This document shows, piece by piece, positions 1 to 11,491 of a DNA stretch of 13,263 nt. Both the position numbers and the translations under genes were made by a program. This stretch comes from Oligoflexus sp. (GTDB lineage: Bacteria > Bdellovibrionota_B > Oligoflexia > Oligoflexales > Oligoflexaceae), in NCBI GenBank assembly GCA_041736305.1, contig JBGSTX010000353.1, positions 1 to 13,263 on the forward strand, given 5' to 3'. The notes under the pieces were generated by a model. It had not been told where the DNA came from and did not search any database. It worked only from the letters and a program-made list of their open reading frames with translations. Numbering within the stretch: position 1 is the first letter of the stretch; each line of letters begins with the position of its first letter.

Positions 1-1210
1 TTGCGTAGCACATAACAGACACGCAAACTATTGTCTCCGGGTCTGAGGTATCTAGCATCATCGTTTCAAAATTATGCTGAAGTCCTAAGGCGTGTCCCAG
101 TTCGTGAGCAGTCAATCTTGCGATTTCTCGGCTTATTTTGAGATCCAAAGGGTCTGAAGAAGATGGCAAGGGGTCATCTACAAATTCTACGGGAATTTGA
201 AATTCGAATCCTGGTACAATCATTTCTCCGGTTTCAGGGTCACTATTCGATCCGGCACCTGCGCCCATGATGCGCTGTTTGGGAATGCCAATTATATTCT
301 GACCAAGACTAAAAATTGAGCGCTTCATTGGCTCGCCCAACACAAACAATTTTCTTCCCAGTATCATGTTCCAATAATTGACGCCTGCGGCAATTCCAAC
401 TTGCACGGCCGGAGGAGTTCCCTCCTCCACATGCATTACGATCGGTCGATTTAAGTTCATTTTCTGAGCAAGATTATTATCATCGGTGAAGAATTGCTCG
501 GCTGCAGCCTCATCAGCCAAGACCAACGGCTCGTAGTCTAGGGATTTCTGCGGGATGGAAAAACTATACTGAACTTCGCAGATAAATGCCGCAGGAGCAT
601 AGGCGTCACGATATAGGCTAACCAATTTTAAGGCTTGGTTCACTAACACCTGCTCCCCATTAATGATCGAACGAACAGACGCGGTGCCGGGAACAATATC
701 AAAATCTTTTGGCTCAGGCTGGGCAGGCAACTTGATTCCATCTTCACTACCAAACGCATTTTCTCCCAGTATAGGATTGCCAGCCTCATCTCGCTTCGTT
801 TCCAATTCTGTGATTTTTGTAAAACCAGCTAGGAAATCAACAGTGATAAATGACTCATCCGCACTTAATATAGGCAGTGAAAAGAGCGTCGCGCCAGTGG
901 CCAAAGATTTTGCGATCAAAGTCTGCTCTACTACCTGAAACGAATAGTATTCAATTTGGTCGTGACTTGTGGTCCCCCAGATCTTGGTATTACCGCCCTC
1001 ACAAACAGTATTTTGTTTTTGAAATAATAATTTTATCCCATCTGCAAATTCTCGCGGGAATTTTACAAGCTGAGTCTTATCGATATTTTTTACAGAATTG
1101 GAGTCGGAATTGGAACCTTGACATTGAATCATCGATGCACTCAAGCTGAGCAAAATCGATAGTTTTACAAGGTGTTTTTTCTTAAAAAGCGCTGCCACGG
1201 GAAAGCTCAT
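1..1210 (-). CDS. Secreted or lipoprotein Zn-dependent metalloprotease (metzincin, EcxA/DUF4953-like); 3' end lies outside the window
   Basis: Manual minus-strand translation is open from ATG 1210 (MSFPVAALFKKKHLVKLSILLSLSASMIQC, signal-like) to base 1. It contains TAHELGHALGLQHNF (HExxHxxGxxH at 74-106), a Met-turn SVMCY, and the upstream motifs RPIVMHVEEGTPP...GVNYWN and DPETGEMI typical of this family. Probably absent from the ORF track because no stop lies in the window. Confidence 0.88.
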   Translation of the reverse strand, partial: MSFPVAALFKKKHLVKLSILLSLSASMIQCQGSNSDSNSVKNIDKTQLVKFPREFADGIKLLFQKQNTVCEGGNTKIWGTTSHDQIEYYSFQVVEQTLIAKSLATGATLFSLPILSADESFITVDFLAGFTKITELETKRDEAGNPILGENAFGSEDGIKLPAQPEPKDFDIVPGTASVRSIINGEQVLVNQALKLVSLYRDAYAPAAFICEVQYSFSIPQKSLDYEPLVLADEAAAEQFFTDDNNLAQKMNLNRPIVMHVEEGTPPAVQVGIAAGVNYWNMILGRKLFVLGEPMKRSIFSLGQNIIGIPKQRIMGAGAGSNSDPETGEMIVPGFEFQIPVEFVDDPLPSSSDPLDLKISREIARLTAHELGHALGLQHNFETMMLDTSDPETIVCVSVMCYA

Positions 1211-1421
1211 AATCAGGTGCGCTCCATTCTGGGAAGTCAAGGTAGTTTCATTCGTTCTGGATAAAAGCGCTCGCTTAAAAGATTCTTGAACGAGCTCAGG
1301 AACTCAATGCAAATTATGGCCCAGGGGTAACGTTCGAATATCTAAGATACTGTGAACTCAAACTGTCTATGTATTAACATGAAAGTGTCTGCCTTGTTAG
1401 GCGACTTTTAAATTAGGGCCA

Positions 1422-1609: not shown

Positions 1610-2926
1610 TCAGTCTTGCCCTAACGCTTGGTGTATTTTAAGGGTTAAGGCTTGATTGATGCCGTGAGAAGTCATATTGCCAACAACACGACCCTGAAGA
1701 TTGTATCCAAGTAGAAAAAGGTCGCCGAGCAAGTCGAGAATCTTATGGCGAACAAATTCATCAGAAAAATTCAACTTGGTGTTGATCACCTTGCCGTCGT
1801 GGATAATGATGTGGGAATTCAAGTAGCCAGAGCCAACCATACCCATTTGCTGGGCAGTGTCGATGTTCTCGAAGGTATTGAAAGAGCGCGCTCGCGCTAT
1901 TTCTTCTTCGAAGGAGTGCTCGGCGGAATTAAAGCGGTATCGTTGCTCGAAAATAGGGGCAGGGTAGTCCACCCGCATCACGATTTCAAAACCTGCAAAG
2001 GGTTCGACGTAGATATATTTTTCGCTCTCCGCCTCGCCGCCTATGCTGATCTTTTTGAGTATGACGGCATCCAGGCGGTTCTTAGACTGCACCTCGATGC
2101 CAGCCTCAGCGATGATCCGGCAGAAATCAGCGGCAGAACCATCGATATTGGGAATCTCCTCATCGACCTTGATCGAGGCATTGGTGATTCCAAGCATATG
2201 CAGGGCTGCGAGTAGATGCTCGACCGTTCGTATGCGTCGTCCACCGCTGCTGAGAACCGTTGAGTTCGCCGTAAAGGACTTACCCTGACCAATTCGATCG
2301 ATATTTTCGAGGGACGTGATGTTCCCTGGTATCGCCACCCCATCGAGGGTCCTGAAGACGATCCCATAGTCGATGGGAGCCGGACTGATGATAACGCCCG
2401 TTGGACGACCCGACAGCAGCCCTACGCCATTGAGGACGGCGTTTCTGCGAACGGTTTTTTGTGCCTCTTTCGAAGAGGTCAAATAGGCTTCTTCACCCCG
2501 CATCAGCGTGAGGGCATGACTGGGAAATACACCCTCTGAACCTTGAGTTCTGACGTCGGTCACGGCTAGGTGAAGGGCAAGCTTCTCGAGCAGAACGTCG
2601 AGATTGATAGGCTTTTCTAAAAAATCACACGCTCCTAATTTCATGGCTTTAACGGCGGTATCTATGCCTGCATGCCCACTCATGAGCACGACAGGCAAAT
2701 TGGGGTATTCGGTCTTTAAAGATCTCAAGGCTTCGAGGCCATCGATTCCAGGCAGCCAAATGTCGAGGAGTATCAGGTGGGGGCGTTCCGACTTCAATCC
2801 TTCTTCTAAGGCTTCTGCGCTAGTAAAAGTCGATATGCGATAGGACTCGTCCATCAAGGCTGACCTAACTGCCGATAGAATAGATTCCTGATCATCGACG
2901 ACAAAAATAGTGCGGGTCTCTGACAT
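1610..2926 (-). CDS. lpxC: Response-regulator receiver domain fused to LpxC (UDP-3-O-acyl-GlcNAc deacetylase), 438 aa
   Basis: Start reassigned to ATG 2926 (MSETRTIFVVDD, GAGG upstream). Residues 1-120 are a REC domain with D11/D12, D55 (LLDIWLPG), S83 and K105-P. Residues about 156-435 are LpxC: QKT..GVGL.SG, APIDYGIVFR, TVEHLLAAL, EIP.IDGSA, IARARSF, DEFVRHKILDLLGDL, SH..N. Confidence 0.93.
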   Translation of the reverse strand: MSETRTIFVVDDQESILSAVRSALMDESYRISTFTSAEALEEGLKSERPHLILLDIWLPGIDGLEALRSLKTEYPNLPVVLMSGHAGIDTAVKAMKLGACDFLEKPINLDVLLEKLALHLAVTDVRTQGSEGVFPSHALTLMRGEEAYLTSSKEAQKTVRRNAVLNGVGLLSGRPTGVIISPAPIDYGIVFRTLDGVAIPGNITSLENIDRIGQGKSFTANSTVLSSGGRRIRTVEHLLAALHMLGITNASIKVDEEIPNIDGSAADFCRIIAEAGIEVQSKNRLDAVILKKISIGGEAESEKYIYVEPFAGFEIVMRVDYPAPIFEQRYRFNSAEHSFEEEIARARSFNTFENIDTAQQMGMVGSGYLNSHIIIHDGKVINTKLNFSDEFVRHKILDLLGDLFLLGYNLQGRVVGNMTSHGINQALTLKIHQALGQD

Positions 2927-3083
2927 TTTAAATCGAACCTCTACGGTTGAAGAAGATCGCGACGATCCTTGAGCAAAGCCATCATAGCAGACCTCCTTCG
3001 AACTTAAAATCCAATAAGTCATAATGACTATGTGGTGCAATATTCGGAGTCGGCATCGCTTTTAATTATGTACCGAGGAAGCA

Positions 3084-3290
3084 CCTCAGCAGAACATTGC
3101 CGTCATCCCGGATCTCGAGCCTGTCGTTGGAAAGAGGGCCACGCGGCATATATTGAGATAGTGCCGGGTGCCGGGTCATTGAGACCCAAGGCTTTGTCCT
3201 TATAGTGCTGGTGCAGCTCACACCGATGACGATTCCCTGGACCCTGCTCAGAAGTTTTCTGTTGGTTTGTAGCCAACAGCGCCTGAGAGG
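3084..3290 (-). pseudogene. Internally deleted, frameshifted ISCR/IS91-family transposase relic
   Basis: Reads PLRRCWLQTNRKLLSRVQGIVIG, then a +2 shift at 3220-3221, then ELHQHYKDKALGLNDPAPGTIS (the segment just before the QRxGSALN/HUH motif). This is joined directly to YMPRGPLSNDRLEIRDDGNVLLR, the catalytic-Tyr segment (compare YMARPPIT.DRLERTATGDILYK at about 11590-11660). Confidence 0.7.
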
Positions 3291-3315
3291 CTTTCAACAC
3301 CCCGCTATTATTACC

Positions 3316-3347
3316 TATCCAAAATTTCGGAATTTTGTTTATCCAAA
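3316..3347. promoter_or_regulatory. Operator-like dyad and direct repeat upstream of the patatin-like gene
   Basis: CAAAATTTCGGAATTTTG (3320-3337) is a near-perfect palindrome. TATCCAAA occurs at 3316 and 3340 in the AT-rich upstream region. Confidence 0.35.
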
Positions 3348-3412
3348 CTTTACATAGATATTTTTAAATCATCTCAAAGATCAATGAAAAATCCTAAAGT
3401 AAGGGAGTTCGC

Positions 3413-4975
3413 GTGCGAACCATCATCGGCATGTTTTTGCTTACCTCACTTCTACCAGCCTGTCGTACCTCAGAGTCAACAGTCAAGAGCAGTCAGCCTA
3501 GTGCAAAATCTCGTCTGGAAGAACCCAAAATCTGCGCGGCGATGCGCGGCAATGGTACGAAACTACCTGCCCTTTTCGGAGCGATGGCTCAGGTGGTGGA
3601 GCAGCACGGCGTCATCAGCCGCGTCGCGGGCGGAAGTTCGGCGTCCATAGCTAGCATGATGTACGAGAGCATGGCGATGAATCCCGCCGTCTGGCAATGC
3701 GGCAGCAGCGATTGCAGCGATGCTGAAGTGCAGGCTAGACTCTCGCTGCTTCTGAAGTCCCTTTCGGGTTTGGTCGACGGAATAGTCGAGTTGCCTGAAG
3801 GTCAGGCCCTGAACTACTTTAAGAATGTTGGTGAGCAGCTTACCCAGGACATGCGTAGTATCCGAAGCGTGGATCCGGCTGCGATCCGTGACAATATGCT
3901 TACCCTCTTGGGGGGAATAGGACAGCTTAAGGGTTTAGCTAATCCAGAACTACGCCGCTACCTCGGTTTCAATGCTTCGCTACAATATCGCATCGATCAG
4001 ATCAAAAGTACCATAGGCAACCTCGGCAAGTTCGAGGCTACGAACGATATTATCTTCTATCGACCAGGCCTCCTCAACTTTCATACGGTAGCCCGCATTT
4101 GGGGGCGCTTAGGTGCTTTCTATGCATCCTATGCCCCTGCCGATAGCAACAGCTGGAAAACTTACCTGGACCAGTGTGCAGAGCCTAACCGAGGCAAACT
4201 TTGGACCGAATTCTCCCCTAGTTGCAAAAGCAGTTTTGCAAAAATGCTCGCTGGCTTCTTCAAGCAAGCTCCCGGGAAAAACCGAGCGGACGATAATGTT
4301 GGTGGATTCGTTAGGTCTTACATTTCGACGGCAGTCATCCTTGATGCACCAACGATCAAAAAATTCACAGATGCCGAAGATGGCTTCTTCAAAGGTCGCC
4401 CGAAGTCTCTAGGGCGGGTCTACGATCAGGTGCGTTTTGGCTACTGGGGTGATTCCGATGACTTGAGCAAAGCAGCGGCCAAAGCCCAATCTCCCACTTT
4501 GCGTGAGAATCTGCACTGGCAGAAGTTTGTGGCTCTGGAACCAGCGAGCTGGGAACAGGCTCTAGCAACCTCGCCGGCAGAACCAGGGCTGGCCAGTATT
4601 CAGCCTTTCAAAAACGGTTCCCAAGACGCGCTATCCTTCGGTGGTTGGGCTAATCTCTTTCCAGCCCAACTTTTGAAAGAAGGGGCGGAGTGTCGCGACG
4701 TCTTTTTTATTACACGAATCGGAGACACGGCTTTTGATGTCGAGGTGAGCAGGCTGCTGGGCATCAATGAAGACGAGCAAAAGGCTCTTTACGACCACTC
4801 CAATCCCATGAGCTCGGTAAAGCAGTCTATTGCCAGCGCTGACCACGTTATTTGCACCGACTGGGATAACGTCGACGCACCAGGGGTAGCAGGAATCGAA
4901 GCCCTGATGCGAGAAGGTTACAGCAAAACAGCCTTCAGCCGCGAGCAGCCGTCGAAGCAGATCGGATGCTATTGA
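3413..4975 (+). CDS. Lipoprotein with divergent patatin-like motifs, 520 aa
   Basis: GTG start after GGGAG; lipobox LPAC. Motifs occur in patatin order: MRGNG (oxyanion-like), VAGGSSASI (nucleophile elbow), ALATSPAEPG and SFGGWANLFP (DGG position). Confidence 0.7.
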   Translation: MRTIIGMFLLTSLLPACRTSESTVKSSQPSAKSRLEEPKICAAMRGNGTKLPALFGAMAQVVEQHGVISRVAGGSSASIASMMYESMAMNPAVWQCGSSDCSDAEVQARLSLLLKSLSGLVDGIVELPEGQALNYFKNVGEQLTQDMRSIRSVDPAAIRDNMLTLLGGIGQLKGLANPELRRYLGFNASLQYRIDQIKSTIGNLGKFEATNDIIFYRPGLLNFHTVARIWGRLGAFYASYAPADSNSWKTYLDQCAEPNRGKLWTEFSPSCKSSFAKMLAGFFKQAPGKNRADDNVGGFVRSYISTAVILDAPTIKKFTDAEDGFFKGRPKSLGRVYDQVRFGYWGDSDDLSKAAAKAQSPTLRENLHWQKFVALEPASWEQALATSPAEPGLASIQPFKNGSQDALSFGGWANLFPAQLLKEGAECRDVFFITRIGDTAFDVEVSRLLGINEDEQKALYDHSNPMSSVKQSIASADHVICTDWDNVDAPGVAGIEALMREGYSKTAFSREQPSKQIGCY

Positions 4976-5946: not shown

Positions 5947-7125
5947 GTGTATAGACGACAACTAATTGATACTATTATGAAAAGACTGATTGAACCGCGT
6001 TCTTTCATTCAAATCCTCTTAGGGCCGCGCCAAGTCGGCAAGACCACTCTGGTGATGCAGCTAGAAGAGAGCAGCGCGGTACCGCAGATCTATGCCTCGG
6101 CCGATGAAGCACAGACGCGCGATCGGCACTGGCTGGAAACACAATGGCAACGCGGAAGAGTGCTTGTCGCAGGCAAGGGCAAAGCAGTTTTGGTTATAGA
6201 TGAAATCCAAAAAGTTTCAGATTGGTCTGAGACTGTAAAAGCCTTGTGGGATGCAGACAGCCGCAACAAGATTCCATTGCATGTCTTGTTGTTAGGAAGC
6301 ACGCCACTATTCGCCGCACGTGGGACGACGGAAAGCCTCGCTGGGCGCTATGAGACAATATATGCCCCTCATTGGTCGTACATAGAGATGGCAAATGCGT
6401 TTGCTTATTCATTTCCTGAGTATCTCTATTATGGTGGATATCCTGGATCTGCTGTCTTACGTCATGAACCTCAGCGTTGGCGGCGCTATATACGAGAATC
6501 CATTATTGAGGCTACTGTATCAAGAGACTTAATGGCTACCGTGCGAATCGATAAGCCGGCACTGTTACGCAATTTATTCTTCCTGGCTTGCCATTATGGA
6601 GGAAGAATACTTTCCTACACTAAAATGCTTGGACAGCTGAACGATGCAGGCAATACCACAACTCTTGCCCATTACCTCGATCTCTTGGCTCAATGCGGAT
6701 TAGTATGCGGGCTGCAAAAATTCAGTGGTGAAAGTGTCCGATCCCGAGGATCGAGCCCTAAACTACTTGCCCTGGATCCCTCTCTTATTACCGCCAATGA
6801 TGAACGAGAAGCTGCCGATTGGCAGCAAGACCCCGAATCTATGGGTCATCTTATTGAAAATATAATTGGTTCCCACCTGTGGCGTGCGTCGAAAGAAAAA
6901 GGTCAGCTGTATTATTGGAGTGAAGGTAAATGGGAGCTGGATTTCGTTTATACAATTGGTTCCAAGATACTGGCTATCGAAGTTAAAAGTGGTCAACGGC
7001 AACACTCGCTGTCTGGACTTACAGAGTTTAAAAAACGCTACCCGGAATGCCGCTCTCTGATTGTTGGCTCAGGTGGTGTGCCGCTTGAAGAATTTCTCGG
7101 TTCCTCGCCTTGGGATTGGCTGTAA
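5947..7125 (+). CDS. AAA_14 ATPase with DUF4143 and a C-terminal PD-(D/E)xK nuclease-like domain (COG1373 type)
   Basis: Walker A GPRQVGKT, Walker B LVIDEIQ, LLGS, ESLAGR, YLYYGGYPG, TLAHYLDLL, SSPK, C-terminal ELDFV...LAIEVKSG. Confidence 0.92.
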   Translation: MYRRQLIDTIMKRLIEPRSFIQILLGPRQVGKTTLVMQLEESSAVPQIYASADEAQTRDRHWLETQWQRGRVLVAGKGKAVLVIDEIQKVSDWSETVKALWDADSRNKIPLHVLLLGSTPLFAARGTTESLAGRYETIYAPHWSYIEMANAFAYSFPEYLYYGGYPGSAVLRHEPQRWRRYIRESIIEATVSRDLMATVRIDKPALLRNLFFLACHYGGRILSYTKMLGQLNDAGNTTTLAHYLDLLAQCGLVCGLQKFSGESVRSRGSSPKLLALDPSLITANDEREAADWQQDPESMGHLIENIIGSHLWRASKEKGQLYYWSEGKWELDFVYTIGSKILAIEVKSGQRQHSLSGLTEFKKRYPECRSLIVGSGGVPLEEFLGSSPWDWL

Positions 7126-7866: not shown

Positions 7867-8187
7867 TCAACGCATGACGTTGCCACCCAGTTGGTCGAGG
7901 ACGGCAAGGCTATTATCTACATCAGTGATCAACTCATAAGAAGTCATCGTTTCACCAAAATACTTGTTCGCAGGATTCTCCACGATGCTGTTCACATTGG
8001 GACTTAGAAAAATGCTGATCGCCACACTCAGGAGCACGAGTGCCACACAGCAAAAGACAAGTAGAGGCTGCGGCCGCTCTTTAGCGCGCCTGAAGCGGAG
8101 CATGATTTGTTCAAATTCATCATGTGGCGCCTCTGGAGCAGGAACCCAAGCGGAACGGATACGGCTCTTAAGTTCTTCAGGAAGCAT
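7867..8187 (-). CDS. Putative single-pass membrane anti-sigma factor, 106 aa
   Basis: ATG 8187 with an AAGGGG RBS overlaps the end of the sigma gene. Short cytoplasmic N-domain, one TM helix (LLVFCCVALVLLSVAISIFL) and a small acidic extracytoplasmic tail. Confidence 0.75.
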   Translation of the reverse strand: MLPEELKSRIRSAWVPAPEAPHDEFEQIMLRFRRAKERPQPLLVFCCVALVLLSVAISIFLSPNVNSIVENPANKYFGETMTSYELITDVDNSLAVLDQLGGNVMR

Positions 8188-8698
8188 GACTTTTCCCCTT
8201 CTCGATGAGGTTCTCAAGTTTACTGCGAGCTTGATGAAGTCGTGACTTCACCGTACCGAGCGGTATGTTTAATGTCTCTGCAATATCCTGCAGTTCCCAA
8301 TCTTCAACGCAAAATAAGATAACAACCTCCCGCAGTTTGGGACTCAGACCAGCGATAGCTTGTTGTATCTCTTCTTGTTCGGAAAGCGCAGCCACAAGAT
8401 CTCCTGTCCCTGCTACCTGTTCTTCCTCGCCGTTAAAGAATTCGAGCCAGCTGCTTCGCTTCCGCTTTCTGTGATAATCGCGCGCTGTATTCAGGGCGAT
8501 GCTGAAGATCCAGGTACGCAATGCACTCTTGCCACCGAATTCCTTGTGCGATCCGAACACCTTAATAAATGTTTCCTGCACCACATCATCCAACTCGTCC
8601 TGAATACCCATGCGAAACAGAAAATTCCTCACGGCACACGCATGCTCATCGTAGATGAGGCGGAAATCTTCAGTTTTGGGAGGAGCGGTCTTAAACAT
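8177..8698 (-). CDS. ECF (sigma-70 group 4) RNA polymerase sigma factor
   Basis: Region 2: DDVVQETFIKV..F.GKSALRTWIFSIALN. Region 4: LSPKLREVVIL...DIAETLNIPLGTVKSRLHQAR. Confidence 0.95.
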   Translation of the reverse strand: MFKTAPPKTEDFRLIYDEHACAVRNFLFRMGIQDELDDVVQETFIKVFGSHKEFGGKSALRTWIFSIALNTARDYHRKRKRSSWLEFFNGEEEQVAGTGDLVAALSEQEEIQQAIAGLSPKLREVVILFCVEDWELQDIAETLNIPLGTVKSRLHQARSKLENLIEKGKSHAS

Positions 8699-8706
8699 GA
8701 GTATCC

Positions 8707-9273
8707 TTAGAATGGAGGTGGACCGTCGCGTTCAGGTGAAAACCGTCTACCCCCGGGGAACGGCCGACCCTCCTTATCGCGCGGTGGACCACCGCGATCA
8801 TAAAAATAGCCGTCAAACATGCCTCGCCCAATGCCTCCACCCCGACGAGGATGGCGGCCTTTCGGCCGTTTTTCAGCCAGTTTCTTAATTTGATCGGGCG
8901 AAAGCAGTCTGTGGATCGCGATCATGGATTCGAAGTGATCGGCCTCAAACTTGACTTTGAATTCACTCATGGCCTTAAACTTTTCGCGCAGTAATCTTTG
9001 ATCCTGACTCGAATCCAGGGCAGACTCGAACTCTGCACGCGCTTTCGCGAGCTCCTTTCTGTTCCCCCGCATCAAATCTTTCTGCTGCTCACGAATCGCT
9101 TGGATCTGGACCTTCTGATCAGCAGTGAGACCAATATCATCGAATAGGGTCTCGGGGCTTGGGGGACCTCGGTGACTGCCCCAGAAGGGGATCCCGAAGC
9201 GCCATACGCTCCCTGCCCAGCCTAAAGCATAACCAAAACTGATAAAGACTAGTATTTTTAGCGTCTGACGCAT
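8707..9273 (-). CDS. Spy/CpxP/ZraP-like periplasmic helical sensor or chaperone
   Basis: ATG 9273 with GGAGG 9 nt upstream. N-terminal signal or anchor, two LTxxQ motifs (GLTADQK, LLSPDQ) flanking long helices, and a Gly/Arg/Pro-rich tail. First gene of the ECF operon. Confidence 0.85.
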   Translation of the reverse strand: MRQTLKILVFISFGYALGWAGSVWRFGIPFWGSHRGPPSPETLFDDIGLTADQKVQIQAIREQQKDLMRGNRKELAKARAEFESALDSSQDQRLLREKFKAMSEFKVKFEADHFESMIAIHRLLSPDQIKKLAEKRPKGRHPRRGGGIGRGMFDGYFYDRGGPPRDKEGRPFPGGRRFSPERDGPPPF

Positions 9274-9313
9274 TCGCAAAAACCTCCAGAGATCAGAGAA
9301 GTCTCCTACAAGT

Positions 9314-9613: not shown

Positions 9614-10462
9614 ATGAATGCTGCTACGAAGAAGTACTTGTTGGTTCTAGGGCTCGGTATACCACTCCTCCATGGATGTCAGCAATCGAAGCAAGTGGCA
9701 GCCAACGCTCAAGCGACAGCCACTCCATCAGACAGCAACGCAAGCGCTGGGGGCAATGACGCCTATTATACTGGCTACGATGGCAACACAGATTTCAGCA
9801 TACTTCTCCCGCGCTTTCGATCTATCGTCGTAAAGGATCCATCCATCGCCAAAATTGAAGCCGTTACGGTGACTCTCTCCGCGACTATCATTGACCAGCT
9901 TGTGCTTGAAGCCAAAGCTGCAAATTCAGCCTTCGAGGAGACTCGCTTTCGCGAGAAGCTCGGGAAGCAGCAGACAACTTATAGAATCACACCTCTCAAA
10001 GCAGGGAAGACCGTTCTCGTCACTTCTGGTGGCCGCGGCGGGGCACCTGGAAAAAGCCAAAGCGGCTTCAGCAAATCGGTAGATATCGATCTCATCGTTT
10101 CCCCTTACACAATTCAGCAGCAGACGGCTGGGAAAGCACGCTATGATGCAGAAGGTTCAGGGACCTTGACTTCCTGTAAATCCTGCCACGAAACGGGCGA
10201 AGAGAATGCACCACCTCACGAGTTAGGGCGCATTATGGAGATCTCTGATAGCGAAGCGCTCTCTTGGGTTAAGACGGGGGAGATCGGATCGCGCAGCGCG
10301 CGCATCCCCCACGCTTGGGAATTCAGCAGCGATGAAGAAGAAAGTGGGATCGTTCCCTATCTGCGCAGCAAGCAGACCCATGACGTCGAAACTCTGACCA
10401 AACTCGTCGTGGAAGAGCAGCTGGCGAACGGAGGATTCATGGGGCCTCCCGTTAAAAAATAG
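9614..10462 (+). CDS. Lipoprotein with a C-terminal monoheme c-type cytochrome domain
   Basis: GAGGG RBS; lipobox LHGC; beta-rich Ig-like middle (VKDPSIAKI..YRITPLKAGKTVL); one CxxCH (CKSCH); candidate distal His in PPHE or IPHAW. Confidence 0.8.
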   Translation: MNAATKKYLLVLGLGIPLLHGCQQSKQVAANAQATATPSDSNASAGGNDAYYTGYDGNTDFSILLPRFRSIVVKDPSIAKIEAVTVTLSATIIDQLVLEAKAANSAFEETRFREKLGKQQTTYRITPLKAGKTVLVTSGGRGGAPGKSQSGFSKSVDIDLIVSPYTIQQQTAGKARYDAEGSGTLTSCKSCHETGEENAPPHELGRIMEISDSEALSWVKTGEIGSRSARIPHAWEFSSDEEESGIVPYLRSKQTHDVETLTKLVVEEQLANGGFMGPPVKK

Positions 10463-10472
10463 AGTAGTGAAC

Positions 10473-10498
10473 GCGGGGCGCCTATTATGGTGCCTCGT
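10473..10498 (+). other. Intercistronic GC-rich hairpin with no U-tract
   Basis: GCGGGGCGCC-tattat-GGTGCCTCGT forms a 10-bp stem with G:U pairs between the two cytochrome genes. Confidence 0.4.
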
Positions 10499-10531
10499 TC
10501 CTTCATCCAACTACGAAGGACTTGAACCATA

Positions 10532-11491
10532 ATGAGCTGTCGCCTTATCCTCAGTCTTACTCTGCTGCTTACTCTGCAACTGGGTGCATGTAAAGATAAA
10601 GATGGTGAGCAACGCTCGCTATTGCAGGATGCCTTTGCTAAGGATTTTCCGCCCTCGCTCGCCGCATCTACACTTTTTATCGGCAATGATCCGGCCCGTC
10701 CTAATCCCGAATTGTTGACTTACGATCCTCGTCTCCCGCTCTGGTCCGATGGAGCCAGCAAGAGCCGCTTTCTTTATCTGCCACCTGGGACGCAGATCGA
10801 GAGTGATGAGGATCTTAGTCAGTTTAAATTTCCCATAGGAACATTGTTCATCAAGCACTTCACTGACCCCCAAAGTACGCTACCTGTGGAAACACGCATC
10901 ATGATCCGGCGCTTAGACGCAGGTTGGAGCTTTGCGACTTATACATGGGCAGCGGACGGCACGTCCACGCGCAGTACTCGACCTCATGAGGAGGTGGTCG
11001 GAGGTTTGCGCTATCGCATTCCTTCAGAAAAGGAGTGCGAACAGTGTCATAGTCGCGGCGAAGAGGTTCTGGGCTTCACTGCATGGCAACTCTTATCAGG
11101 AGGACTGCTCAACACGCTTGCCCGCGGCAATCGCATTCTACCCGAGGCAGCAGTGCGCGCCGCCAGCCAGGAAGTAGGAGTTTCTAAGGCAGAGGTTAAA
11201 GAAGACCGGGTGGCATTCGCGCTCCGCTACCTGGATGTCAACTGTGGAAGCTGTCACCAGCCTCAAGGTCCAAGCAAGGCAAGAGATTTTGATTTGCGCT
11301 GGGGGCAGCAAACCCGCGCAGGCTTGATCGCTAGTGGCAAGATGGTTGAAGGCTCGCTGGAAAATTCTGCTATCTGGAAGCGTTTTATAGCAGAAAGCGA
11401 GCGAATGCCTCAGCTCAGCCTACGGCAAGATCCTCAGGGTCTCGAGCTCATCAAAGACCTGATCCAGGGTGAGGATACTTCTCAGGATTGA
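10532..11491 (+). CDS. SO2930-like diheme c-type cytochrome lipoprotein
   Basis: Lipobox LGAC; family motifs PLWSDGASKSRFLYLPPG, FPIGTLFIKHF, ETRIM and WSFATYTW; two CxxCH (CEQCH, CGSCH); RMP distal Met. Confidence 0.85.
   Translation: MSCRLILSLTLLLTLQLGACKDKDGEQRSLLQDAFAKDFPPSLAASTLFIGNDPARPNPELLTYDPRLPLWSDGASKSRFLYLPPGTQIESDEDLSQFKFPIGTLFIKHFTDPQSTLPVETRIMIRRLDAGWSFATYTWAADGTSTRSTRPHEEVVGGLRYRIPSEKECEQCHSRGEEVLGFTAWQLLSGGLLNTLARGNRILPEAAVRAASQEVGVSKAEVKEDRVAFALRYLDVNCGSCHQPQGPSKARDFDLRWGQQTRAGLIASGKMVEGSLENSAIWKRFIAESERMPQLSLRQDPQGLELIKDLIQGEDTSQD

Follow-up and report, generated by a model that had tools for sequence, protein, structure and literature searches.

A receiver domain and LpxC on one chain

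In this study, we analysed a stretch of 13,263 nucleotides from Oligoflexus sp. (GenBank assembly GCA_041736305.1, contig JBGSTX010000353.1), hereafter the window, and focused on one gene, REC-LpxC (protein P0002), which carries a response-regulator receiver (REC) domain and an LpxC deacetylase domain on the same chain. LpxC catalyses the committed step in the synthesis of lipid A and sets the rate of lipopolysaccharide (LPS) synthesis, and it is a long-standing antibiotic target. The gene occupies positions 1610-2926 of the minus strand, with the stop codon at 1610-1612 included, and its frame runs unbroken from the ATG at 2926 through 438 amino acids (aa). The single uninterrupted frame reported in an earlier note on this DNA (the original prediction) was therefore confirmed, and the strand, which had not been given, is the minus strand; the plus strand across 1610-2926 contains many stops. 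An in-frame TTG at 3040 could lengthen the protein by 38 aa, and homologues start at the position of the ATG at 2926. The gene is preceded by a divergent intergenic region of 486 bp (2927-3412), on the minus strand of which a consensus scan found no sigma-70-like site, and an Rfam and tRNA scan of the whole window returned no match.

The receiver domain covers residues 7-116 (2579-2908, minus strand) and matches the Pfam Response_reg family (PF00072) with 101.5 bits (E = 3.9e-29). The residues that had been predicted for a complete receiver (D11/D12, D55, S83 and K105) were each found at their position, so that the PF00072 match is accompanied by the acidic pair, the phospho-acceptor, the switch serine and the lysine. 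An alignment of 90 sequences shows no variation at D11, D55, S83 or K105 and at least 90% conservation at D12; the codon of D55, the predicted phospho-acceptor, lies at 2762-2764 (minus strand) and its residue is the same in 90 of 90. The receiver belongs to the NtrX/NtrC/FixJ type and carries the motifs DIWLPG, MSGHAG and DFLEKP; its top NCBIfam receiver models are FixJ (96.8 bits) and NtrX (95.9 bits). The nearest solved receivers are 4d6x and 5m7n, both entitled 'Nitrogen assimilation regulatory protein', which we take to be Brucella NtrX, followed by NtrC-family receivers. Between the two Pfam matches lies a linker (residues 117-155; 2462-2578, minus strand); its presence had been foreseen correctly, and its length is 39 aa rather than about 35. 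The linker is poorly conserved in the same alignment, and residues 123-140 are predicted by AlphaFold2 to be disordered, with a predicted local distance difference test score (pLDDT) below 50.

The LpxC domain (residues 156-432; 1631-2461, minus strand) matches Pfam PF03331 with 234.2 bits (E = 2.6e-69, cut-off 27) over positions 1-267 of the 268 in the profile, and it passes the NCBI equivalog model TIGR00325 (lpxC), whose cut-off is 187.25, with 200.3 bits. Its catalytic set is complete, and every element of the full LpxC named in the original prediction is in place. E236-H237 in the motif TVEH (2216-2221, minus strand) correspond to the general base E78 and the zinc ligand H79 of E. coli, the motif HKILDLLGD (1721-1747, minus strand) supplies H394, K395, D398 and D402 as the equivalents of E. 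coli H238, K239, D242 and D246, and H421 (1664-1666, minus strand) corresponds to the general acid H265. The zinc ligands H237, H394 and D398 together with E236, H421, K395 and D402 are invariant in 90 of 90 relatives, are retained in all three LpxC groups compared below, and are aligned by HMMER to the catalytic positions of LpxC from P. aeruginosa. The AlphaFold2 model (pLDDT 84.7, predicted template modelling score 0.82) is confident for both domains. By Foldseek, it superimposes on P. aeruginosa LpxC with a template modelling score (TM-score) of 0.83-0.87 and a root-mean-square deviation of about 2 Å, and the LpxC chains that it matches, from P. aeruginosa, E. coli and A. aeolicus, give E values of about 1e-28 and target TM-scores of 0.80-0.92.

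The same architecture recurs in many other proteins and genomes. Among the best 120 clusters from a collection of 5.8 billion proteins (query included), 119 contain both PF00072 and PF03331, at 55-77% identity, and the one exception, P0068, is a 362-aa protein with LpxC only. The combination of Response_reg and LpxC, for which the original prediction had suggested an architecture search, is present in 118 of the 119 other best clusters and, judged by depositor labels, in several phyla. Two isolates, Desulforhopalus sp. 52FAK and 'Deltaproteobacteria bacterium TL4', are among the carriers named for these clusters. We also scanned species-representative genomes with tblastn (377 relatives), and retained 76 loci, of which L003-L059 have the fused gene. 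In 55 of these 57 loci, open reading frame (ORF) clustering gave the fused gene as a single continuous frame, and the depositor labels of fused-gene carriers include Oligoflexus/Oligoflexales/Bdellovibrionota, SAR324, Desulfobulbaceae, Nitrospirota and Leptospiraceae/Leptospirales. Within the window, the junction at 2462-2578 is bridged by contigs of other studies (X2, 2023-3100; X3, 2360-2558; X4, 2482-2730), which also provides support across 2460-2570, the segment where a false join had been considered; one further contig, X1, covers the entire stretch but is possibly the source of this DNA. An assembly chimera or frameshift artefact joining two separate genes, for which the fragmentation of the source assembly into 392 contigs might speak, was rejected as a negligible possibility, given the identical architecture in 118 of the 119 other best clusters, the continuous frame in 55 of 57 genome loci and the contigs of other studies' runs that cross the junction. 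We therefore regard REC-LpxC with high confidence as a genuine receiver-LpxC enzyme. Just 3' of its stop codon, at 1546-1586, contig X2 has 277 other letters in place of 39 bases; this intergenic indel is a strain-level difference.

Ancestry of the fusion and its probable place in lipid A synthesis

The receiver of REC-LpxC appears to be the remnant of a larger regulator. A HMMER search against 1.84 billion representatives gave 390 proteins with E ≤ 1e-30, and many of these are fused forms of 650-736 aa. By Pfam, such long forms consist of REC, Sigma54_activat, AAA_lid_14, in some cases HTH_8, and LpxC, and a 491-aa relative consists of REC, HTH_8 and LpxC. Some fused records have no receiver and are probably truncated at the N-terminus; a search with residues 150-438 as query found no form of at least 768 aa, which is weak evidence. 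The best NCBIfam model for the long forms is NtrX (335 and 250 bits, positions 3-450 of 452), ahead of AtoC and NtrC. These scores lie under the 600-bit cut-off of the NtrX model (NF051870), as does that of the window protein (95.9 bits, receiver portion only). Since NtrX is the best model at scores below its cut-off, the receiver is taken to derive from such a regulator, and the protein itself is not a member of the NtrX family.

A quick maximum-likelihood tree of 117 LpxC domains places all fused LpxCs on one side of a branch with a Shimodaira-Hasegawa-like approximate likelihood ratio test (SH-aLRT) value of 93, opposite 53 stand-alone LpxCs. On the fused side are 36 short forms, 15 long ones, 7 of intermediate length, 2 forms with an N-terminal extension of 60-120 residues and 4 fragment-like sequences of about 285 aa, and the window protein falls in a short-form sub-clade with support of 97-100. 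Because sampling was biased to the best matches of the query and the tree was midpoint-rooted, a single origin of the fusion is consistent with the tree and not proven by it. On these sequence comparisons, the receiver is probably what remains of an NtrX-like regulator, and the ancestral form is likely to have been a REC-AAA+-helix-turn-helix (HTH)-LpxC protein encoded directly after an NtrY-like kinase. As the receiver is the N-terminal domain that was retained when the AAA+ and HTH domains were lost, the coupling of receiver and LpxC appears to be preserved by selection, with the receiver as the part that probably counts in the control of LpxC.

The source genome (G000; 5.02 Mb in 392 contigs, 92.7% complete) has a second LpxC. 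It holds two PF03331 loci, a canonical one on contig C284 (319.7 bits, 328-aa frame) and that of the window (235.7 bits). When PF03331 was searched in 116 kin genomes of the same class, each at least 80% complete, the scores were bimodal: canonical LpxCs, with frames of about 276-390 aa, scored 283-352 bits, and the receiver type, with frames of 424-526 aa, scored 231-247 bits; partial matches in G024, G030 and G031 were left unclassified. The receiver type is present in 20 of the 116 genomes, beside a canonical copy in 10 and alone in the other 10. The latter are G028, G029, G033, G034, G035, G038 and G039 (91-96% complete) and G061, G066 and G070 (81-86% complete). At this lower completeness, the missing canonical LpxC of G061 and G070, which belong to the genus of the source genome, is probably an assembly gap. 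In that genus, the receiver type is found in 9 of 13 genomes, and the one-contig genome G071 has the canonical type only. Outside the class, the receiver type is the sole LpxC found in G002 (SAR324), in G003, whose 4.26-Mb record bears the title 'chromosome: 1', and in G005, a Leptospiraceae metagenome-assembled genome, and it coexists with a canonical copy in G001 and G004.

The neighbouring steps of the pathway are retained where the fused enzyme stands alone. LpxA was found above the equivalog cut-off in all five sole-type genomes tested (G002, G003, G005, G028 and G034), and LpxB in all eight tested (G002, G003, G005, G028, G029, G034, G035 and G039). As no other LpxC was found in these genomes, which retain LpxA and/or LpxB, we infer that the fused protein carries out the LpxC reaction in those organisms, and REC-LpxC is most probably a functional lipid A deacetylase.

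REC-LpxC nevertheless departs from other LpxCs at several positions. We compared 17 LpxCs of the window clade, 52 stand-alone LpxCs and 40 other fused LpxCs over the columns with a conservation of 85% or more in the stand-alone set. Five residues that are 90-100% conserved in stand-alone LpxC are exchanged in the window clade (H to L171, T to S348, G to S366, N to S371 and G to S420), and the 40 other fused forms retain the canonical residue at all five columns. By alignment offset, the L171 column is H19 in P. aeruginosa numbering. S348 is the equivalent of E. coli T191; the column has T in 100% of the 52 stand-alone and 40 other fused LpxCs and S in 82% of the window clade, so that the hydroxyl is retained. 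The accessible part of a 2026 review lists T191 together with E78 and H265 as critical for LpxC catalysis in E. coli (PMC13333357). These five replacements and the short C-terminus described below may reflect co-adaptation to the receiver, or they may alter the kinetics or specificity of the enzyme.

These changes keep alive, for the source genome, an alternative in which REC-LpxC is a paralogue of changed function that acts on another UDP-acyl-sugar or chain length or on another glycolipid, while the LpxC of C284 makes lipid A. This reading could draw on the canonical copy at 319.7 bits, on the restriction of the five near-invariant exchanges to the window clade and on the variable presence of the gene in its own genus (9 of 13, with G071 canonical only). 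However, members of the same clade with the same five replacements are the sole LpxC beside LpxA and/or LpxB, and the zinc ligands, the general base and the general acid are invariant. We therefore consider a changed function unlikely.

An NtrY-like kinase as the candidate partner

The genomic surroundings of the long forms point to a possible kinase for the receiver. In loci L090 and L093, a DUF4390 gene is followed by a gene for a 744-aa kinase (NtrY_N, HAMP, PAS, HisKA and HATPase_c) and then by the long fusion. The two loci are 80% identical and so are not independent, and the NtrY_N Pfam model matches their kinases weakly (32 and 24 bits). In a protein search with the long-form kinase, the source genome gave C215:54003-56219 with 496.5 bits and 37% identity over residues 14-742. 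One full-length relative each is present in G000, G028 and G003, and G002 has a match to the C-terminal two-thirds. The kinase of the source genome lies in an NtrY-like operon (L146, C215:52503-57719), which encodes a 224-aa ORF, a 784-aa kinase (HAMP, PAS, HisKA and HATPase_c) and a 478-aa REC-AAA+-HTH regulator, the sigma-54 contact loop of which reads GAFTNA instead of GAFTGA. The 219-224-aa ORFs 5' of the kinase in G000 and G028 have no Pfam match, whereas L090 has DUF4390 (3047-3631, plus strand).

The regulator next to this kinase follows the type of LpxC that a genome has. Of the 116 kin genomes, 104 contain the NtrY-like kinase, each as a single copy, and we read 24 kinase neighbourhoods, a sample outside which lie G032, G037 and G069 (both LpxC types) and G066. 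An adjacent regulator is present in all six canonical-only genomes that were picked (G040, G053, G058, G065, G071 and G072) and in all seven both-type genomes (G000, G036, G059, G060, G062, G067 and G068). None of the seven well-assembled REC-LpxC-only genomes has such a regulator, nor do G002 and G003, and it appears only as fragments in G061 and G070. When the receiver of the G000 regulator was used as query in five genomes with such an orphan kinase, the best match anywhere in the genome was, in all five, the REC-LpxC receiver, with 90.7-98.9 bits and 41-46% identity, and the runner-up scored 62-70 bits. A different kinase type, that of contig C378 in the source genome, had no match at E ≤ 1e-25 in three of the five orphan-kinase genomes (G028, G034 and G002), and in G003 the only match to it was the catalytic core of the NtrY-like kinase itself. 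By this pattern of genes, the NtrY-like kinase is the best candidate partner of REC-LpxC. As a separate observation, the NtrY-like kinase of G028, where REC-LpxC is the only LpxC, is followed by a gene for a 442-aa DUF4388 protein (L147, G028:C2, 213-1541, minus strand) instead of a response regulator.

From these observations we propose that the NtrY-like kinase switches REC-LpxC through D55, a reading to which we give a probability of about 0.6. The membrane kinase (C215:54003-56219 in the source genome) would phosphorylate D55, and the phosphorylation would alter the contact of the receiver with LpxC or the oligomeric state of the protein. The phosphorylated or the unphosphorylated receiver would then change deacetylase activity or the stability and turnover of the protein, and lipid A flux could follow an envelope signal without a transcription step and without the FtsH/LapB/YejM route. 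The candidate phosphorylation-switched lipid A enzyme of the original prediction is supported as a candidate. Because canonical LpxC and the regulator adjacent to the kinase are both present in the source genome, REC-LpxC would serve there as a signal-controlled second isoenzyme on a branch of the phosphorelay of the NtrY-like kinase.

Several points weigh against this proposal. First, catalysis, the phosphorylation switch and the kinase that would act are deduced from sequence, control could be by activation or by inhibition, and the five replaced near-invariant columns may mean that the specificity or kinetics of REC-LpxC differ. Second, no kinase gene is found in the window or among the conserved neighbours of short-form loci, PF19312 (NtrY_N) has no match in G000, and G005 matched the kinase query only at the catalytic core (residues 516-733, 146.8 bits). 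Third, the kinase is present in 104 of the 116 kin genomes whether or not they have REC-LpxC, so co-occurrence does not discriminate, and within G000 the receiver of the window is about equally near to the C378 regulator (95.1 bits) and the C215 regulator (93.2 bits), with the next at 74.3 bits. Finally, the orphan-kinase genomes are kin, five of them from one genus, and represent perhaps three independent lineages.

Two other explanations accept a genuine LpxC and differ in the role of the receiver. In one, the receiver would be no switch but would have a constitutive role in dimerisation, in localisation to the membrane or to a partner, or in folding. The missing kinase gene in short-form loci is compatible with this, and the long, poorly conserved and predicted-disordered linker speaks against rigid allosteric coupling. 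However, across 90 sequences with only 55-77% identity to the query, D11, D55, S83 and K105 never vary and D12 shows at least 90% conservation, and receivers that abandon phosphorylation usually lose such residues, in line with the accessible part of PMC12632262. In addition, the receiver is the one N-terminal domain common to the complete fused forms, whereas AAA+ and HTH have been lost, and we judge a constitutive receiver quite improbable. In the other explanation, signals would flow in reverse: LpxC would sense its substrate or product and alter the uptake or loss of phosphate by the receiver, which would act as a phosphate sink reporting lipid A precursors to the kinase and a transcription factor. 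Such an arrangement could be imagined in G000, which has the kinase, a DNA-binding regulator and a REC-LpxC with a closely related receiver, and in the ancestral long forms, which carry HTH and LpxC on the same chain. In the REC-LpxC-only genomes, however, there is no adjacent transcription-factor partner to inform, and reverse flow is accordingly very unlikely in our estimation.

Neighbouring genes and comparison with known systems

About 5 kb from REC-LpxC lies an envelope-stress-like module (7867-9279, minus strand), which consists of an LTXXQ/Spy-like periplasmic protein (8707-9279) and an ECF sigma factor (8177-8698), both by Pfam match, and an overlapping ORF of 116 aa (7867-8217) that has a single hydrophobic stretch and no Pfam match, a candidate anti-sigma factor; all three are on the minus strand. 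Directly downstream of REC-LpxC, an ORF that runs off the window (2-1240, minus strand) has weak Met-zincin/matrixin matches at HELGHALGLQH, and a relative of it (cluster c38) also adjoins the fusion in L009. Two adjacent ORFs at 9614-11491 (plus strand) have signal-peptide-like N-termini and CxxCH motifs (CKSCH in one, CEQCH and CGSCH in the other); with only a sub-threshold PSCyt1 match, they are possibly secreted c-type cytochromes. The gene at 5947-7125 (plus strand) encodes an AAA_14 + DUF4143 ATPase, a kind of gene that frequently occurs in mobile or defence-like settings. In the SAR324-type loci (L020, L025, L028-L040 and L057), the short fusion stands within a housekeeping row, in which peptide deformylase and DUF192-like genes precede it (11 loci) and a NusB-like gene comes after it (in 19 loci altogether); these genes were named by eye.

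Compared with canonical LpxC of E. coli, P. aeruginosa and A. aeolicus, REC-LpxC shares the fold, the zinc ligands, the acid/base pair and the presumed reaction and pathway position. It differs in having an N-terminal receiver and linker, in the five replaced residues and in the lack of a C-terminal tail: its C-terminus lies 6 residues past the Pfam match, and the canonical paralogue of G000 is about 40 residues longer. LpxC of E. coli is controlled by FtsH/LapB/YejM proteolysis, and the known controls of LpxC in general are proteolysis, partner proteins (LapB and MurA) and transcription. The FtsH degron of E. coli LpxC is at the C-terminus, as stated in the accessible text of a 2025 review (PMC12444477). 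The zinc ribbon of LapB (PF18073) was found in none of five genomes; its 28-position model also matches Gram-positive controls and says little. The accessible text of the 2026 review describes direct control of LpxC activity as 'an emerging paradigm', with LapB and MurA as cases, and names allosteric LpxC regulation as an open goal (PMC13333357). Within the accessible text of these two reviews of LpxC regulation (PMC12444477 and PMC13333357), the words 'receiver', 'fusion' and 'fused' do not occur.

The second system for comparison is NtrY/NtrX of Alphaproteobacteria, in which the link to lpxC is indirect and transcriptional. REC-LpxC shares with it the NtrX-type receiver and the target LpxC, and its long relatives match NtrX over the full length and follow an NtrY-like kinase. 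In contrast to NtrY/NtrX, control of REC-LpxC would be post-translational and in cis on the enzyme, and AAA+, HTH and DNA binding are lacking. In R. sphaeroides, loss of NtrYX raised lpxC mRNA 8.8-fold and increased LPS, and no NtrX site was found upstream of lpxC (PMC7240162). According to the 2025 review, in its accessible part, lpxC is one of many genes in the large NtrYX regulons of R. sphaeroides and Caulobacter, and its transcription is lowered by NtrYX (PMC12444477). By analogy, this biology fits an NtrY-like kinase that would act on REC-LpxC.

The fusion combines two known kinds of protein, a regulated LpxC and a response regulator with an enzymatic output. Response regulators of the latter kind include the CheB methylesterase, the diguanylate cyclases PleD and WspR, and the HD-GYP protein RpfG. 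The arrangement of REC, linker and enzyme is the same in these proteins, and the expected logic is that phosphorylation gates the catalytic domain in cis; the difference is that the output of REC-LpxC is a committed biosynthetic enzyme of envelope lipids and not a signalling enzyme. In the literature searched, there was no described case of a receiver that gates such a committed-step biosynthetic enzyme. LpxC-FabZ (PRK13188/NF009667) is likewise a natural fusion of LpxC with another function, but its partner is a C-terminal metabolic dehydratase, whereas the partner in REC-LpxC is an N-terminal signalling domain. The accessible part of a preprint describes fusions of the LpxC-FabZ type (PF03331-FabA) from the FCB/PVC groups (bioRxiv 10.1101/2025.10.16.682753). 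The window protein is not of this type: NF009667 gave 169.6 bits against a cut-off of 465, over the LpxC part only, and Pfam found no FabA/FabZ domain.

The original prediction knew of no characterised example of such a fusion, and this held in our search. No paper on a receiver-LpxC fusion was found in the literature searched, although a bare listing in supplementary tables or InterPro is possible. The closest paper concerns, as far as its accessible part goes, a different mechanism, in which the DNA-binding regulator DVU2934 targets the lpxC promoter in Desulfovibrio (PMC3333781).

We further consider that REC-LpxC may have taken the place of canonical LpxC and also of the NtrX-type factor in the Oligoflexia genera g23, g25 and g26, in a SAR324 genome and in the G003 lineage. 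This double replacement is a tentative proposal, which we think somewhat more likely to fail than to hold. If it is true, the single output of the NtrY-like sensor in these organisms would be the direct, non-transcriptional phosphorylation of the committed lipid A enzyme. This would give a one-step loop of outer-membrane homeostasis, an evolved alternative to FtsH/LapB/YejM proteolysis, and the source genome would represent an intermediate stage, with the old circuit and the new one side by side.

In conclusion, a receiver on the LpxC chain would be a new and directly testable mode of control, in which the signal of a kinase acts on the enzyme itself. As a natural 'Rosetta stone', the fusion ties NtrYX physically to LpxC across several phyla. 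We believe that REC-LpxC can be a tractable one-protein system for learning how LpxC may be regulated allosterically.

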